From positions 1-64,000 of the IMG/VR virus record IMGVR_UViG_3300009506_000014: 64,000 nucleotides of DNA; one strand, 5' to 3'. Positions within the stretch are counted from its first letter, which is position 1. Every line of letters starts with the position of its first letter. A program made the translations under genes and the position numbers. Source of the stretch: a virus. Shown piece after piece: positions 1 through 59,409 of this stretch. The notes under the pieces were generated by a model. The model saw nothing but the letters and a program-made list of their open reading frames with translations. It had not been told where the DNA came from and ran no database searches.

Positions 1-250
1 GAGTCACCAAGTATAAGTCCAAGTGCTTCGGAGTCACCAAGTATAAGTCCAAGTGCTTCGGAGTCACCAAGTATAAGTCCAAGTGCATCTGAGTCACCTT
101 CAGTGTCTCCTTCGGCTTCGGAGTCACCAAGTGTGAGTCCGAGTGTGTCTGAATCTCCAAGTATCTCACCGTCAGCTTCGGAGTCACCCTCGATATCACC
201 AAGTGTGTCTGAATCTCCGAGCTTAAGTCCAAGTTCATCTGCGTCACCCT
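1..250 (+). repeat. 30-bp tandem repeat encoding ESPS[IV]SPS[AV]S
   Basis: gagtcaccaagtataagtccaagtgcttcg at 1-30 and 31-60, with degenerate in-register copies to about 250; changes are mostly synonymous or conservative. Confidence 0.95.
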
Positions 251-53566: not shown

Positions 53567-54343
53567 ATGGCAAAAAAGAAATGGAGTGACAAGTTAGTAA
53601 TCAAGGCGTATGAGTACGCATACGCGGGACTTCGCAACGGTCAAATCGCAAGGACATTTGGCATCAGTAAAAACCGTTTTGCCGATTGGAAAAAGCTTCA
53701 TCCTCTTTTTGCTTATGCTCTGAAACGGGCAAGAAAAAAACGTGACAAGGAGAACGGCGAGTCAATGAGTTTTCGTGACTATGTATATCAGCAACTTCCT
53801 GACAATATACAGAAAGTATGGGATGAAGTCACGGAGCTTGATGAAGCGGAATCCGGTCAAGCTGCCATTGAAGCTCTTTTGTCACAACACGGAAAACGAG
53901 TCAGACAAAATATATTTGTTCATGCTATGGTGTCATCAAATTTCTCGCTGAGCCAGTCACTTAAAAGGGCCAATATAAGTAAAGCAACTTTGGACTATTG
54001 GAAAAAGAATGAGCCTGAGTTTGCTGTCCTCATCGAAGAGCTAAACTGGCATAAAAAGAATTTCTTTGAAGACCACTTGGCGACATTGGTTGCTGGTGGT
54101 GATTCTGCCGCTACGATATTCGCTAACCGTTCTTTCAATGCAGACCGGGGCTATGGAGATAAGCAAAGAGTTGATGTCAATGTGAATGCACAGATTGAAA
54201 CGTCAACACCATTATCGCTTGAAGAGCTTGACTTGCCCCCGGAGCTATTGAAACAGATTTTAGACCATATACGTCATAAAAAGATTATCGAATCCAAGGT
54301 AGTCACGGAAAAGAAAAAACTATTGGAAGCAGGAGCGGCATAA
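53567..54343 (+). CDS. Terminase small subunit (putative)
   Basis: Two HTH-like segments; RGYG motif; upstream of large terminase. Confidence 0.7.
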   Translation: MAKKKWSDKLVIKAYEYAYAGLRNGQIARTFGISKNRFADWKKLHPLFAYALKRARKKRDKENGESMSFRDYVYQQLPDNIQKVWDEVTELDEAESGQAAIEALLSQHGKRVRQNIFVHAMVSSNFSLSQSLKRANISKATLDYWKKNEPEFAVLIEELNWHKKNFFEDHLATLVAGGDSAATIFANRSFNADRGYGDKQRVDVNVNAQIETSTPLSLEELDLPPELLKQILDHIRHKKIIESKVVTEKKKLLEAGAA

Positions 54344-54360: not shown

Positions 54361-54633
54361 ATGTTCAGGACAATTAAAAGATGGCTCGGCATAAAACGGC
54401 CTGAGTATTATATCAGGATTGTAACTGCTATGGTCACGATTGAAGTCAAAGCAGAAAGTAAAAACGACTTGGATTATTTGGTCACGGAGCATCTGGACAA
54501 GCTGGTTCTAAAAGCAAAGGAAGTTGCTCAGGATGTCATTGCCGAACAAAAAAGCGTATGTGCAAAAGAAGTTAATAAAAGTATGATGTTGTCAACACCA
54601 ATAAGAAGTGGAATTACTACGGGCAGAGCATGA
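54361..54633 (+). CDS. Hypothetical protein
   Basis: AGGAG RBS; stop overlaps terL start. Confidence 0.6.
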   Translation: MFRTIKRWLGIKRPEYYIRIVTAMVTIEVKAESKNDLDYLVTEHLDKLVLKAKEVAQDVIAEQKSVCAKEVNKSMMLSTPIRSGITTGRA

Positions 54634-56186
54634 AAGATAAAATGACACGTAGGGATTTACTTAAAGCCGGGGCTATGGCTGCCATTGGAGTGGGTGTCTC
54701 GTCACTTTCAGAGGAAGATAAGGCTTTAAGCAGTAGTCTTTCCGTCACGGAGATAGATGCAATCCGAGCCTATACGAGACAGTCCTTTTACGGCTTCGTC
54801 CAAGAATTTTGGGATACTGTCATTCCTGAAAGTCCCGTATGGAATTGGCATATTGAATACTTGTGTAATGAATTGCAGTTTATTGCCGAACGTGTGTTTG
54901 AGGGACTTCCAAAGCTTTACGACCTTGTTATTAATATAAGTCCCGGTAGTACCAAGTCAACGATATGCAGCATCATGTTTCCTGCATGGGTGTGGACAAG
55001 AATGGCGTCAGCCCGAATTATTTGTGCATCGTATGCTTACAACCTTGCAATGGATTTGTCTCGTAAGAATCGTGACGTTGTATTATCTGAAAGGTATCAA
55101 GCGTGTTTTCCTGAATTACAACTACGTGACGACCAATCGGCAAAGAGCTATTTCATTAATCGGCTTGGCGGTTCAAGATATTCGGTTGGTGTTGGTGGCT
55201 CTGTGACAGGTCTGCACGCTCATTTTCTTTTTGTTGATGACCCATTAGACCCAAATGAAGCTGTCTCTGAAGCGGATTTGAAAACAGCAAACCGATGGAT
55301 GAAAGAGACACTACCCACGAGAAAAGTCAACAAGCTGATTACGCCTACAATTTTAATCATGCAGAGACTCCATCAGGATGACCCTGCACAGAATATGATT
55401 GACAGGGCTGAAGAGGGTGGAGCTAAAGTAAGGCATATATGTCTCCCCGGCGAATTGACAGAGGATGTCAAGCCAAAAGAGTTAAGAGCCAAATATGTTG
55501 ACGGCTTGATGGATGTAAACAGGTTAGACCGACAAGTGCTGAAAGAAATGTATGTCGCCTTGGGTGAGTATGGATATGCAGGGCAGATATTACAACGTCC
55601 TGTCCCGTTAGGCGGTGGTATGTTCAAGACCGACAAAATCAGAATAGTCGATGCTCCCCCTTGTAAAGTCATAAGATGTATTCGATATTGGGACAAAGCA
55701 GCGTCACACAACAAAGGGGCTTTTACAGTTGGGGCTTTATTATGTGAAGATGAAAAGGGATGCACAGGGATACTTGACATACAAAGGGGACAATGGGGTT
55801 CATACGAAAGAGAGTCACATATCTTGTCTACTGCACAGTTGGACGGGAAAAAAATTAGGATATGGATAGAGCAGGAGCCGGGCAGTGGTGGCAAGGACTC
55901 GGCAGAATATACAATAGGAAGTCTCCGGGGCTTCAGGGTGTTTGCTGAGAAAGTAGGGGCTTCAGAGGGCAGTAAGCAATTAAGAGCAGAACCGCTTGCG
56001 TCACAGGTCAATGCAGGAAATGTTTGGATGATACGAAGTGACTGGAATAAGGAATATATCAGTGAGTTGTCATTCTTTCCATTCTCAAAATACAAAGACC
56101 AAGTTGATGCGTCATCGGGTGCTTTTAACAAGTTGACAAAGAAACGAACAAGAATTGGTGGATATGGTAGAAGAAAAGGAACATGA
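54630..56186 (+). CDS. terL: Terminase large subunit
   Basis: WNWHI, ISPGSTKST Walker A, FVDDP Walker B, MQRLH, YWDKA, KDQVDA nuclease motifs. Confidence 0.93.
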   Translation: MKDKMTRRDLLKAGAMAAIGVGVSSLSEEDKALSSSLSVTEIDAIRAYTRQSFYGFVQEFWDTVIPESPVWNWHIEYLCNELQFIAERVFEGLPKLYDLVINISPGSTKSTICSIMFPAWVWTRMASARIICASYAYNLAMDLSRKNRDVVLSERYQACFPELQLRDDQSAKSYFINRLGGSRYSVGVGGSVTGLHAHFLFVDDPLDPNEAVSEADLKTANRWMKETLPTRKVNKLITPTILIMQRLHQDDPAQNMIDRAEEGGAKVRHICLPGELTEDVKPKELRAKYVDGLMDVNRLDRQVLKEMYVALGEYGYAGQILQRPVPLGGGMFKTDKIRIVDAPPCKVIRCIRYWDKAASHNKGAFTVGALLCEDEKGCTGILDIQRGQWGSYERESHILSTAQLDGKKIRIWIEQEPGSGGKDSAEYTIGSLRGFRVFAEKVGASEGSKQLRAEPLASQVNAGNVWMIRSDWNKEYISELSFFPFSKYKDQVDASSGAFNKLTKKRTRIGGYGRRKGT

Positions 56187-56187
56187 C

Positions 56188-56388
56188 ATGGCAAAAACAA
56201 TGGAGCAGAAAAATAATGTCCCGGACATTGGGGAAGTGCTTTACACCATTTTGGCAAATCAAGTGACAATTTTGGATTTATTAAAATGCTTCCATCGTCA
56301 CGATATAAATGGTATGAGTGAAATAAGTCAGCAGTTAATAAAGATGGACAGAACATCAAGAGACTTATTGAAAAGAATGCAATTATGA
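56188..56388 (+). CDS. Hypothetical protein
   Basis: Short ORF coupled to terL. Confidence 0.5.
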   Translation: MAKTMEQKNNVPDIGEVLYTILANQVTILDLLKCFHRHDINGMSEISQQLIKMDRTSRDLLKRMQL

Positions 56389-56942
56389 AAAATGACAAGA
56401 TAAAACGAAGAAGTTTTTTGCAAGGTCTTGCAGCCATTGTGACAACTGGGACTTTGGTAAAAAAGACCGAAGGCAAAGTGACAGAGCAGACGAAGACGAA
56501 AGAAATATTGCCGCCACCTTCATTTGCCCCAACTTACAGAGAAAATAAACCAGCGGAACACACAGAGCTTATGCCACCTATATGTATAAGTAGATGTGAG
56601 TTAAATGAGGGAGAGACGAGGTTGACATTCCGGGCTGGGGGACAGGAGTATTATATCTATCCTGATAAGATAGAAATGACATATCATTCATATTCAAGAC
56701 AAGTGACTCCAGATTATTGTGTTGTCAATTCTCCGGGATATATGGGGACAATGATAGTAAAAGGTTGGTTTGGTGGTGGTAGTCCCGGTGTGTGTATTGA
56801 AGATATGATAGGGAGAAGTGGTGACCTTGTTATTCGCAAGCTGGAAGAAGGTCACGAGTTTATTTGTAAAGCTTCGTTGGTTGAAGTTAGGATAGAAATT
56901 AGTCGATTAGTCACGGAGTTAATATTTTATATATATCAATAG
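56385..56942 (+). CDS. Hypothetical protein with twin-arginine-like N-terminus
   Basis: IKRRSFLQGLAAIVTTG. Confidence 0.6.
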   Translation: MKNDKIKRRSFLQGLAAIVTTGTLVKKTEGKVTEQTKTKEILPPPSFAPTYRENKPAEHTELMPPICISRCELNEGETRLTFRAGGQEYYIYPDKIEMTYHSYSRQVTPDYCVVNSPGYMGTMIVKGWFGGGSPGVCIEDMIGRSGDLVIRKLEEGHEFICKASLVEVRIEISRLVTELIFYIYQ

Positions 56943-56956
56943 GAAAGGACATTAGT

Positions 56957-57256
56957 ATGGAAAAGAAAATTGAACGGCGTGGATTTCTAAAGGGACTTAC
57001 CGGGGTGATAGCTGGAATTACAGTCGGTGCAAAAGCCGCATCTGTCACACCAACAAAAGAGCCTACAATTAGAAGTCCCGAACCAGCAGAAGAGTTTGAT
57101 GATGACATTTGGAATAAACTTGCAGAAGAGTTTGATGATGACAGTTGGATTAAACTTGATGAAGCAATTATTAAACATGGACGTGAACTGCTACAAAGAG
57201 TGATGGCCGGAAAGAGTCACAGTCGTTTCAAATCAAGAATACCAAAAAGGAGATAA
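56957..57256 (+). CDS. Hypothetical protein with twin-arginine-like signal
   Basis: IERRGFLKGLTGVIAGITVGAKA; internal 36-bp tandem repeat at 57086-57157. Confidence 0.6.
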   Translation: MEKKIERRGFLKGLTGVIAGITVGAKAASVTPTKEPTIRSPEPAEEFDDDIWNKLAEEFDDDSWIKLDEAIIKHGRELLQRVMAGKSHSRFKSRIPKRR

Positions 57257-57260
57257 ATAT

Positions 57261-57794
57261 ATGCTGACAAGAAGAAGTTTATTTAGAAGAGCCGGGGAAG
57301 CCATAGCCTATGTGACAGGCTGGTTATATATGACAAGCGGAGCAAAGCCGAAAAAGGAAAAAGCAGCAGAGCTTCCACAGTACAAAAGTTTTATCAGTAA
57401 CAAAATTTATGTCCCACCATTTGAAGTGACTGATAAAGATATTGTGGATTGTTTGGTCTATGCCAATTATCAGTTTAATCAATGGCTTAATTGTGGATTT
57501 GACAAACGTCATGAAATGCCTGTTCTTTATATGTCACAAAGATTCTATGACAATATGTGCCTATTGTACATTTCCAGATGGCCCAACCGGGCTATTTCAG
57601 ATAGTCACGTTATGGAATGCAGACATGAAGGTAATTTATGGGGACTTCAACAGGTTTTCAATTTGGATATAGAGATTGTCCCGGATGGTGTGATTGATTG
57701 GGGTGATGGCCCGGAATATAGTTGTTTCCTTACTTGTATTTCCTGTGAAGGGACAGCACAATCAAGAAATATGAAATATAAGAAAATAGATTAG
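57261..57794 (+). CDS. Hypothetical protein with twin-arginine-like N-terminus
   Basis: MLTRRSLFRRAG; AGGAG RBS. Confidence 0.55.
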   Translation: MLTRRSLFRRAGEAIAYVTGWLYMTSGAKPKKEKAAELPQYKSFISNKIYVPPFEVTDKDIVDCLVYANYQFNQWLNCGFDKRHEMPVLYMSQRFYDNMCLLYISRWPNRAISDSHVMECRHEGNLWGLQQVFNLDIEIVPDGVIDWGDGPEYSCFLTCISCEGTAQSRNMKYKKID

Positions 57795-57804
57795 GAGTCA
57801 CGAT

Positions 57805-59409
57805 ATGGCAAAAAAGAAGAAAAAGGGTAAAGTCACGGCTAATACGGATGCCGAAGTTACTGTCATTAAGCCAGAGGATGTAGTAGCCAACAGTGTCCCG
57901 GCTGAAGTGCTTCAGGCAAGAGAAAGACGTATAGCATTCAATCAGATGATGGCAATGCAGTTGGCAGGAGTTACTGGCAATACGGCATTGATGAGCAGAC
58001 AAGCTTTACTGAGTGCATTGAATACAGAACGTGACTATAACTTCGAGTGCGGATATCCTGACGTATTAATGACAAAGCATTATACGGAAATGTTTGGGCG
58101 TGAAGGTATAGGCAAACGAGTTGTCACGGTTTATCCCGAAGAGTGCTGGTCACAACATCCTGAAATCAACGAGAATGAAGATGAAAGTGACGAGACAGAA
58201 TTCGAGAAGGCAGTAAAAGACCTTGTCAAAGATTTGAGACTTTGGGAATATTTGGAACGAATTGACATCTTGAGCGGTGTCGGTCGTTTTGGTGTCCTTT
58301 TGCTCGGTATTGATGACGGGATGCCACTTGATAAGCCACTTCCCGGTGTCAATGACATAACAGGTGAAATCACTCCGCAGGGTGAAAGAAAGCTCTTGTA
58401 TCTCAGGCCGTTTGATGAGGGTTGTGTACGTGTTGACAGGAAGGTGATTGATACTACGTCACCAAGGTTTGGGTATCCGATGATGTATGATATAACCTTC
58501 CGTGACTATGATACTGTTAGCGGTATTGTAGAGACACATCTGAAAGTTCACTGGTCACGAGTGATTCACATTGCGGATAACAAGGAAGTCTCTGAGATTT
58601 ACGGTGTCCCGCGTATGAAGCCTGTGTATAACAGACTTGTTGACGTTCGGAAGCTTCTTGCTGGCTCAGGTGAAATGTTCTGGAAGGGTGGATTTCCCGG
58701 TTATGCAATGGAGATAAACCCGGACATTCAAGACCCTGAAATAGATGTTGACTCTGTGAAAGAAGAGTTTCGGAATTATTCTGAGGGACTTCAGAGATAT
58801 CTGGCTATTGAGGGTGTGAGTGTCAAGAGCTTGCAACCACAGGTAGCAGACCCGGTTGGTCACTTTACCACACAGGTCAAGGCTATAGCAATGACAATCG
58901 GTGTCCCGTACAGAATCTTCATGGGTTCTGAGGAAGCCAAGCTTGCCAGTAGTGAGGATAAGTCAACATGGAATGAACGCAAGAAAAGACGGCGAGAGAA
59001 TTATTTGTCACCTTGCGTTGTCCGGGCGACACTTGATAGATTGCAGCAAATCGGCGTATTAAAGGAAGCCGAATATGAAGTCAATTGGCCTGACCCGGAG
59101 ACACCAAACGATGACGACATTGCCAGTGTTGCTCAAAAGGTGTCGGATGCCCTGAGCAAGTACACAGCAAACGATGTGGAGACAGTGATGCCACCACTGG
59201 AATTCTTCACTAAGGTTCTGAAGATGTCACAGGAAGAAGCTGAAGCGGTAGAGGAAGCCCGGCAGAAACATAATGAAGAGCTTGACCAAGAACGAGAGGA
59301 TGACTTGGCACAAAGAGAGCAGGATGTCTCTATTCGTGAAGAGACATCACGTAAGAACGAGTTGAAAAACAAGATGCAAGATAACAGTTGGACTAAGGAT
59401 GGGGAATGA
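57805..59409 (+). CDS. Portal protein (DUF1073-like)
   Basis: R…IGKRVV…P, SGVGRFG, VHWSRVIH, IGVPYRIFMG; between terL and minor head gene. Confidence 0.85.
   Translation: MAKKKKKGKVTANTDAEVTVIKPEDVVANSVPAEVLQARERRIAFNQMMAMQLAGVTGNTALMSRQALLSALNTERDYNFECGYPDVLMTKHYTEMFGREGIGKRVVTVYPEECWSQHPEINENEDESDETEFEKAVKDLVKDLRLWEYLERIDILSGVGRFGVLLLGIDDGMPLDKPLPGVNDITGEITPQGERKLLYLRPFDEGCVRVDRKVIDTTSPRFGYPMMYDITFRDYDTVSGIVETHLKVHWSRVIHIADNKEVSEIYGVPRMKPVYNRLVDVRKLLAGSGEMFWKGGFPGYAMEINPDIQDPEIDVDSVKEEFRNYSEGLQRYLAIEGVSVKSLQPQVADPVGHFTTQVKAIAMTIGVPYRIFMGSEEAKLASSEDKSTWNERKKRRRENYLSPCVVRATLDRLQQIGVLKEAEYEVNWPDPETPNDDDIASVAQKVSDALSKYTANDVETVMPPLEFFTKVLKMSQEEAEAVEEARQKHNEELDQEREDDLAQREQDVSIREETSRKNELKNKMQDNSWTKDGE

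Follow-up and report, generated by a model that had tools for sequence, protein, structure and literature searches.

The stretch of DNA analyzed here (the window) comprises bases 1-64000 of the 77,155-bp IMG/VR virus record IMGVR_UViG_3300009506_000014, which derives from an uncultured phage and is rated as complete by CheckV. In its head and packaging module four neighboring genes, one of them encoding the large terminase subunit (TerL), specify proteins that begin with leaders of the twin-arginine translocation (Tat) type, and the same genome encodes a subunit of the TatA/E family. On balance, we favor the view that these leaders are genuine Tat-type targeting signals, used with the phage TatA and the TatC(B) of the host, in what would be a deliberate use of the host Tat pathway by a phage. 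The module lies on the plus strand in the order terS-orf90-terL-orf77-orf185-orf99-orf177-portal-MuF-like head protein, and the genes under discussion are the following:

53567..54343, plus strand: terS, small terminase subunit (phrog_309, E = 2.5e-14)
54361..54633, plus strand: orf90, a 90-residue ORFan without a leader, between terS and terL; its stop codon overlaps the TerL start codon; no family match
54630..56186, plus strand: TerL, large terminase subunit, 518 amino acids (phrog_38, E = 7.7e-76; TIGR01630, 46.1 bits)
56155..56388, plus strand: orf77, a small leaderless open reading frame (ORF) of 77 amino acids, between terL and orf185; no family match
56385..56942, plus strand: orf185, an ORFan beginning with the leader MKNDKIKRRSFLQGLAAIVTTGTLVKK; start codon and orf77 stop overlap (ATGA)
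56957..57256, plus strand: orf99, with the leader MEKKIERRGFLKGLTGVIAGITVGAKA followed by A; no family match, leader scored by TIGR01409
57261..57794, plus strand: orf177, with a weaker leader, MLTRRSLFRRAGEAIAYVTGWLYMTSGA, and KPKK after it; belongs to a small M-x-x-R-R-S family
57805..59409, plus strand: portal protein (PF06381, E = 8e-26; phrog_146, E = 4.7e-67)
22340..22513, minus strand: TatA/E-family subunit (PF02416, 31.4 bits)

The four N-termini that had been quoted in the initial annotation are present in the sequence exactly as written there, namely MKDKMTRRDLLKAGAMAAIGVGVSSLS in TerL, MKNDKIKRRSFLQGLAAIVTTGTLVKK in orf185, MEKKIERRGFLKGLTGVIAGITVGAKA in orf99 and MLTRRSLFRRAGEAIAYVTGWLYMTSGA in orf177. 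That annotation had placed the last three in the ORFs following TerL; the leaders are indeed there, although they do not succeed TerL directly, as the leaderless orf77 intervenes, and the leader-bearing genes are four within a run of six adjacent genes. A motif of the (S/T)-R-R-x-F-L-K kind is found near the N-terminus of each of the four proteins: TRRDLLK in TerL (residues 6-12), KRRSFLQ in orf185 (residues 8-14), ERRGFLK in orf99 (residues 6-12) and TRRSLFR in orf177 (residues 3-9). All four leaders display a basic n-region, RRx(F/L)(L/F) and an h-region of 10-15 residues rich in Gly, Ala and Thr (that of orf177 contains a Glu), and basic c-region residues are found in three of them. Small residues occupy positions -3/-1 in orf99 (AKA), TerL (SLS) and orf177 (SGA); judged by inspection, the small-x-small end is clear in orf99 (AKA, then A), plausible in TerL (SLS, then E) and in orf177 (SGA, then K), and ambiguous in orf185. 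In the case of TerL the leader spans residues 1-27 (54630-54710), with the n-region MKDKMT, then RRDLLK, the h-region AGAMAAIGVGV and SLS, followed by EED, while the leader of orf99 is the most canonical of the four.

Taken together, these features are those of Tat signals and are unusual for Sec signals or transmembrane anchors, according to the substrate classes described for the pathway (PMC13673990). The canonical Tat signals covered by TIGR01409 and PF10518, for instance those of TorA and SufI, share with the phage leaders the basic n-region, the (S/T)RRxFLK-type motif, the short and weak h-region and, for the most part, the AxA-like end and the basic c-region; the difference is that here the putative export signals are found on a phage TerL, a cytoplasmic ATPase-nuclease, and on ORFans in a head-assembly block. 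The curated cut-offs are 16.7 bits for TIGR01409 and 22.7 bits for PF10518 (the Pfam TAT_signal family). When the leaders were scanned alone (first 40 residues), two of the four passed the TIGR01409 cut-off, TerL with 21.8 bits and orf99 with 19.1, orf185 remaining under it with 15.2. Motif, anatomy and, for two of the four leaders, profile thus support the Tat-like character that had been ascribed to these N-termini, and locate it on a real TerL.

The clustering of the leaders was evaluated with a detector requiring RR near the start codon and, behind it, a hydrophobic stretch free of charged residues. Scanning of the whole 77 kb returned these four genes, all other matches being antisense or internal ORFs. 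On a crude gene call, ten near-complete related phages gave two credible and two doubtful matches in 944 genes, as compared to 4 of 95 here, an enrichment with a Fisher p = 0.003 to 0.0009 over those relatives; the chance of finding four marked genes within six consecutive genes is ~3e-4. The DNA encoding the four leaders shows no similarity from one to another beyond what the motif imposes, and different Arg codons are used, which leaves recent copying without support. Besides a mobile leader module captured by terL, the initial annotation had proposed a membrane tether for packaging and the engaging or blocking of the Tat translocon as candidate roles. The mobile module is thus unsupported as far as recent copying is concerned, while the scattered distribution of leaders among TerL homologues (see below) fits repeated gain, or many losses.

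The link of the leaders to the Tat machinery is strengthened by the phage TatA, a protein of 57 amino acids when read from a GTG start, or 55 from the ATG at 22507. It matches PF02416 (TatA_B_E) over profile positions 2-52/53 with 31.4 bits, above the cut-off of 21, whereas the 37.1 bits obtained with TIGR01411 are under the subfamily cut-off of 53.9; phage TatA is thus a diverged member that can be assigned to the Pfam family only. By inspection its layout is FGFAEIAVICLIGILVFG-RQLP-KVISGTTKTIKEFRKGFKE, and it displays an N-terminal transmembrane helix with a Glu, an FG hinge providing the glycine, LP, and an amphipathic helix ending in EFRKGFKE. Of 40 related phage records, which include 19 with a completeness of 90% or more, none yielded a TatA above threshold; tblastn gave no match to the phage TatA in 50,697 GenBank phage records, no PHROG family contains it, a word-based protein search returned the query only, and no relatives were found in viral or genome contigs. 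The gene lies 32 kb away from the candidate cargo genes, in the early minus-strand block, where it overlaps both of its neighbors: an SbcD-like metallophosphoesterase gene (22500-23474) and a coiled-coil ORF, after which comes a C-terminal ATPase piece of the SbcC/Rad50-like kind (21271-21852).

Cells require the TatA subunit in large excess, and its paralogues can favor particular substrates (PMC13673990), so a phage copy could raise or redirect export capacity. The phage protein resembles the known paralogues, such as TatE of E. coli and TatAc or TatAd (the latter acting with PhoD) of B. subtilis, in that it is short, of the TatA/E type and encoded away from any tatC, with candidate substrates in the same genome, and these known paralogues are among those for which substrate preferences are described (PMC13673990). 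It differs from them in being encoded by a phage, in its distance from the candidate cargo, in its TIGR01411 score under the cut-off and in having neither a match in GenBank phages nor a PHROG family.

The protein bearing the first of the leaders is an intact terminase. TerL matches phrog_38 from residue 26 onwards (E = 7.7e-76) and TIGR01630 with 46.1 bits over a cut-off of 41.65, no match being found among Protein Data Bank (PDB) sequences. For comparison we used its best 120 homologues (53-83% identical) and ~160 fetched loci. TerL keeps all of the 107 positions that are conserved in at least 95% of the 120 homologues, including the Walker A K109, the Walker B D203/D204, and D355 and D490/D493 (nuclease acidic residues), and its ATPase and nuclease motifs are therefore intact. 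No second terminase was found in the genome, TerL being the only one.

The first residue conserved across the family is F56, and most homologues start ~25 residues earlier; on this basis the TerL leader is an add-on of ~27 residues plus a Ser-rich linker, rather than a mis-called start inside the enzyme. Moreover, the TerL ATG overlaps the stop codon of the upstream orf90 (ATGA), and the internal Met16 lacks a spaced AGGAG-type (Shine-Dalgarno) site such as precedes other genes in this genome. The initial annotation had considered that the true start of TerL might lie downstream of the motif; both the ATGA coupling and the position of F56 speak for the start at the leader.

The h-region of TerL, AGAMAAIGVGV(SSLS), has only 11-15 residues rich in Gly, Ala and Ser, and it does not qualify as a membrane-spanning signal-anchor. 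An N-terminal RR signal could keep a protein attached to the membrane, as in the class III Tat substrates with uncleaved anchors, of which the Rieske proteins are an example (PMC13673990). However, the h-region of TerL is too short and weak for a stable membrane span, which argues against an anchor of the Rieske type, and in Rieske proteins the globular domain comes to lie outside the cytoplasm, a location in which DNA packaging by a terminase would be impossible.

With regard to the conservation of the extension among TerL homologues, a comparison proposed in the initial annotation, nothing before F56 is conserved in the family as a whole, but comparable leaders are present on at least three other TerLs (52-56% identical). 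The first of them (P0060/P0122) starts with MAKAKINRR(E/D)LLKAGAVAGLGG and has the motif RR(E/D)LLK; the second (L032) starts with ITRRKFIKKAVITIPTTSALA, then D-M, with the motif RRKFIK; and the third (L125) starts with MNRREFIKTATVVTAISKA, with the motif RREFIK. The terS gene overlaps at its end with the leader ATG in both L032 and L125, and the leader of L032 ends in ALA-D-M, right before the Met where leaderless homologues begin. In a FastTree phylogeny of the TerL cores the four leader-bearing TerLs are located on separate branches, and the well-supported branches force at least three state changes, a scattered pattern that would fit repeated gain, or many losses. In the TerL of P0002/P0121 (66% identical) the N-terminus, SRKKPSDASLAGAAGVLV, equals the query leader in length, but KK replaces RR and the FLK motif is lost; this may be a decayed leader. 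That of P0001 (83% identical) begins with a Leu inside the leader region, and its gene call may be cut off.

In general, TerLs of this family acquire add-ons at the N-terminus. Members of 613-621 amino acids (P0014, P0024, P0028 and others) carry an extra domain of ~130 amino acids, and others (P0094, P0117) have Cys-rich, zinc-ribbon-like (Cys4) extensions.

None of the three small leader genes has a counterpart in the 160 related loci. Searched against 5.8 billion proteins, orf185 matched only itself, it has no Pfam or PHROG match, and its AF2 model (pLDDT 33) is unusable for fold. The mature part of orf99 contains a duplicated acidic motif, EEFDDD(I/S)W(N/I)KL (EEFDDDIWNKL and EEFDDDSWIKL), and its C-terminus is strongly basic (KSRIPKRR). 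In the case of orf177 three remote homologues of 112-123 amino acids were found (P0127-P0129, E = 1.7e-5 to 6e-4), which start with MLNRRS or MMINRRS followed by ..LPFLGFLK; R4/R5 are invariant in this small family, and thus the leader is a feature that the family has kept. The alignment of the family gave no match in viral and genome contigs.

The AF2 model of orf177 is of low confidence (pLDDT 54.6, core 65-81). When its core (residues ~54-167) was compared in an unbiased manner to 48,161 PDB representatives, ~40 of the top 50 rows were HK97-fold capsid or encapsulin chains, with Z values of at most 5.7, under the usual noise ceiling, and hhalign detected no similarity of orf177 to the phage's own capsid protein. 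From this model orf177 may be a capsid-fold fragment placed behind a Tat leader, or the match may be noise, and we treat it as a lead only. A NapD- or TorD-like chaperone was also considered for the leaderless orf90 and orf77, a candidate found unsupported by the low-confidence Atlas models and the lack of a family match.

Taken as targeting signals, the leaders would operate as follows. A TatA/E-type subunit would be made from the early minus-strand gene block and would join the TatC(B) receptor of the host; late in infection, the four proteins of the head and packaging module would reach this receptor via their RR leaders. The three small proteins, orf185, orf99 and orf177, are probably exported, most likely in folded form, into the envelope. 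In the case of TerL, the leader would most likely direct a fraction of the molecules to the membrane, where they would be docked at the Tat receptor or exported as surplus, while the TerL engaged with terS, DNA and procapsids would remain inside the cytoplasm. Binding to the receptor, export, cleavage and a benefit to the phage are what we infer, and in the case of TerL docking, export or bypass can only be inferred.

A more specific idea, which we hold as tentative and consider possible but not probable, is that the packaging enzyme is sent deliberately to the Tat translocon, either for a packaging or TerL pool organised at the membrane by docking to the Tat receptor, or in order that free TerL be removed or used in the envelope. 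Avs-type cytoplasmic sensors recognise terminases, and keeping TerL away from terminase-recognising sensors of this sort is one possible use, an extracytoplasmic nuclease being another. If so, TatA and the three RR neighbors (one of them possibly based on a capsid fold) could be parts of a single export module run by the phage.

Several results weigh against the leaders being functional Tat signals employed in this manner. Unlike canonical Tat signals, the whole proteins score just under the curated cut-offs: with TIGR01409, TerL reached 16.3 bits, orf99 16.5 and orf185 12.1, all under 16.7, and orf177 gave no match, while with the Pfam TAT_signal profile TerL reached 18.1 bits against the cut-off of 22.7. 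Scanned alone, the leaders of orf177 and L032 had no TIGR01409 match, for which reason we rank orf177 as the weakest of the four. No TatC was found in the phage, the sole PF00902 match (13.5 bits, cut-off 25.1) being located in an alternative frame of a Ser/Pro-repeat gene, and the phage must therefore rely on the TatC of the host. A Tat system in that host is assumed; the TerL matches in genomes are distant ones from several phyla, and no tRNAs were found in the phage genome.

The co-occurrence of TatA and a leader-bearing TerL also rests on this single genome: the other leader-bearing TerLs are on contigs of 1.4-5.6 kb, or 44 kb (P0122), and no longer related contigs were found with the TerLs of P0060 and L032 as queries. 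A related complete phage without TatA encodes, just upstream of terS, a metzincin/serralysin-like protease of 213 amino acids with the Tat-like leader MVTRRTFINLSAAALVGMGLVPA (L063:4054-4695, equivalent to G025 16447-17088, minus strand), and a phage TatA is thus not required for such a leader to be present. Finally, TerL shows no cysteine depletion as a sign of adaptation to the periplasm, having nine cysteines, near the family maximum, versus a family median of 5, and we know of no role for a terminase outside the cytoplasm.

Some of these points, namely the high Cys count of TerL and the lack of an obvious gain from export for a cytoplasmic enzyme, would also be explained if only the three small proteins were Tat substrates, the TerL N-terminus being either a docking site for a partner (terS, portal or a chaperone) or a tolerated add-on that resembles a Tat signal. 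The variety of N-terminal additions in the family (the ~130-residue domain and the Cys4 zinc ribbons, none conserved before F56), which marks this end of the protein as a hot spot for add-ons, is in line with such a proposal. Nevertheless, TerL has the best TIGR01409 score of the four leaders when these are scanned alone, at least three further lineages of TerL show the design of RRxF/L(L/I)K, short h-region and AxA, and the TerL leader stands beside three similar ones in a phage that has its own TatA; we regard this explanation as unlikely.

The layout of the module in related phages bears on a second alternative. In a survey of the gaps between terL and portal, the portal gene directly abutted terL in most relatives, and thus the four small ORFs represent here an insertion of 1.6 kb. 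Several relatives have other inserts at this junction, and both it and the terS-terL junction are insertion hot spots in many relatives. Among the genes seen at the terL-portal junction of several relatives are small membrane proteins and a conserved gene of ~300 amino acids with a DRHWDNP (metallophosphoesterase-like) motif (L007:7770-8675, L016:8715-9623, L022:3000-3905, L024:5567-6469). As for the ends of the record itself (G000 73431-77155; window 1-200), both are inside a tandem Ser/Pro-repeat coding sequence, an ORF of >1240 amino acids running off the end, so that its 'direct terminal repeats' may correspond to the sequence of the repeat gene and not to true genome ends.

With insertions of this frequency on both sides of terL, and with a Tat-leader protease just upstream of terS in one relative, an accessory Tat leader could have been fused in frame to terL by a deletion, as a by-product that is nearly neutral owing to inefficient export or to bypass from an internal start. 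The Met kept right after the leader in L032, Met16 of the query and the possibly decayed, same-length N-terminus of P0002, with KK for RR and no FLK, would be in agreement with a fusion of this kind. Yet four separate lineages have kept the RR, an h-region and an AxA-like end without damage, P0060 and L125 have no internal Met that could serve for bypass, Met16 of the query is not preceded by a spaced Shine-Dalgarno sequence and the four leaders share no DNA similarity indicative of recent copying; we judge a fusion by-product to be distinctly improbable.

The phage TatA could also be conceived as part of a device that permeabilises the membrane or sets the timing of lysis, in which RR proteins unable to pass, such as procapsid-bound TerL, jam the translocon and TatA assemblies depolarise the membrane. 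TatA assemblies are able to destabilise membranes and a transient depolarisation has been proposed for some substrates (PMC13673990). In addition, no endolysin was identified in a search for lysis genes that was not exhaustive, and the only holin-like match is weak and located beyond the window (phrog_1129, E = 0.006). Direct evidence for such a device is lacking, however; tatA belongs to the early replication block and is thus distant from the leaders, and we rate this explanation as very improbable. A candidate holin and a lipoprotein, which also speak against it, are encoded elsewhere in the genome. These two form a possible lysis pair (L174:2416-3260, equivalent to G000 65815-66659), in which a 110-residue protein with the weak holin match is followed by a protein of 171 amino acids with a lipobox-type Sec signal (LVGC).

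The least credible explanation is that of a chance resemblance or of mis-called starts, the leaders being unmade or functionless: the sub-threshold hidden Markov model scores of the whole proteins and the little information carried by short signal-like motifs would allow for it, but the statistics on clustering and enrichment speak against it, as do the overlaps between leader ATG and a stop codon in three phages, the invariant RR of the orf177 family and the phage TatA.

Terminases are treated as strictly cytoplasmic proteins, and Tat as a system of the host for folded proteins, those with cofactors among them. Neither Tat signals on terminases nor a phage-encoded TatA were the subject of any paper that we found, and viral Tat components do not appear in a 2026 review on Tat. 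The leaders together with the phage TatA suggest a deliberate use of the host exporter of folded proteins. If true, a phage with its own TatA, and with a Tat tag on its sole terminase and on three neighbors, would be something new, and the appearance of the terminase tag in several TerL lineages adds weight to this; it could mean that a virus controls an export machine of its host, or that the packaging of phage DNA includes a step of localization or of disposal.

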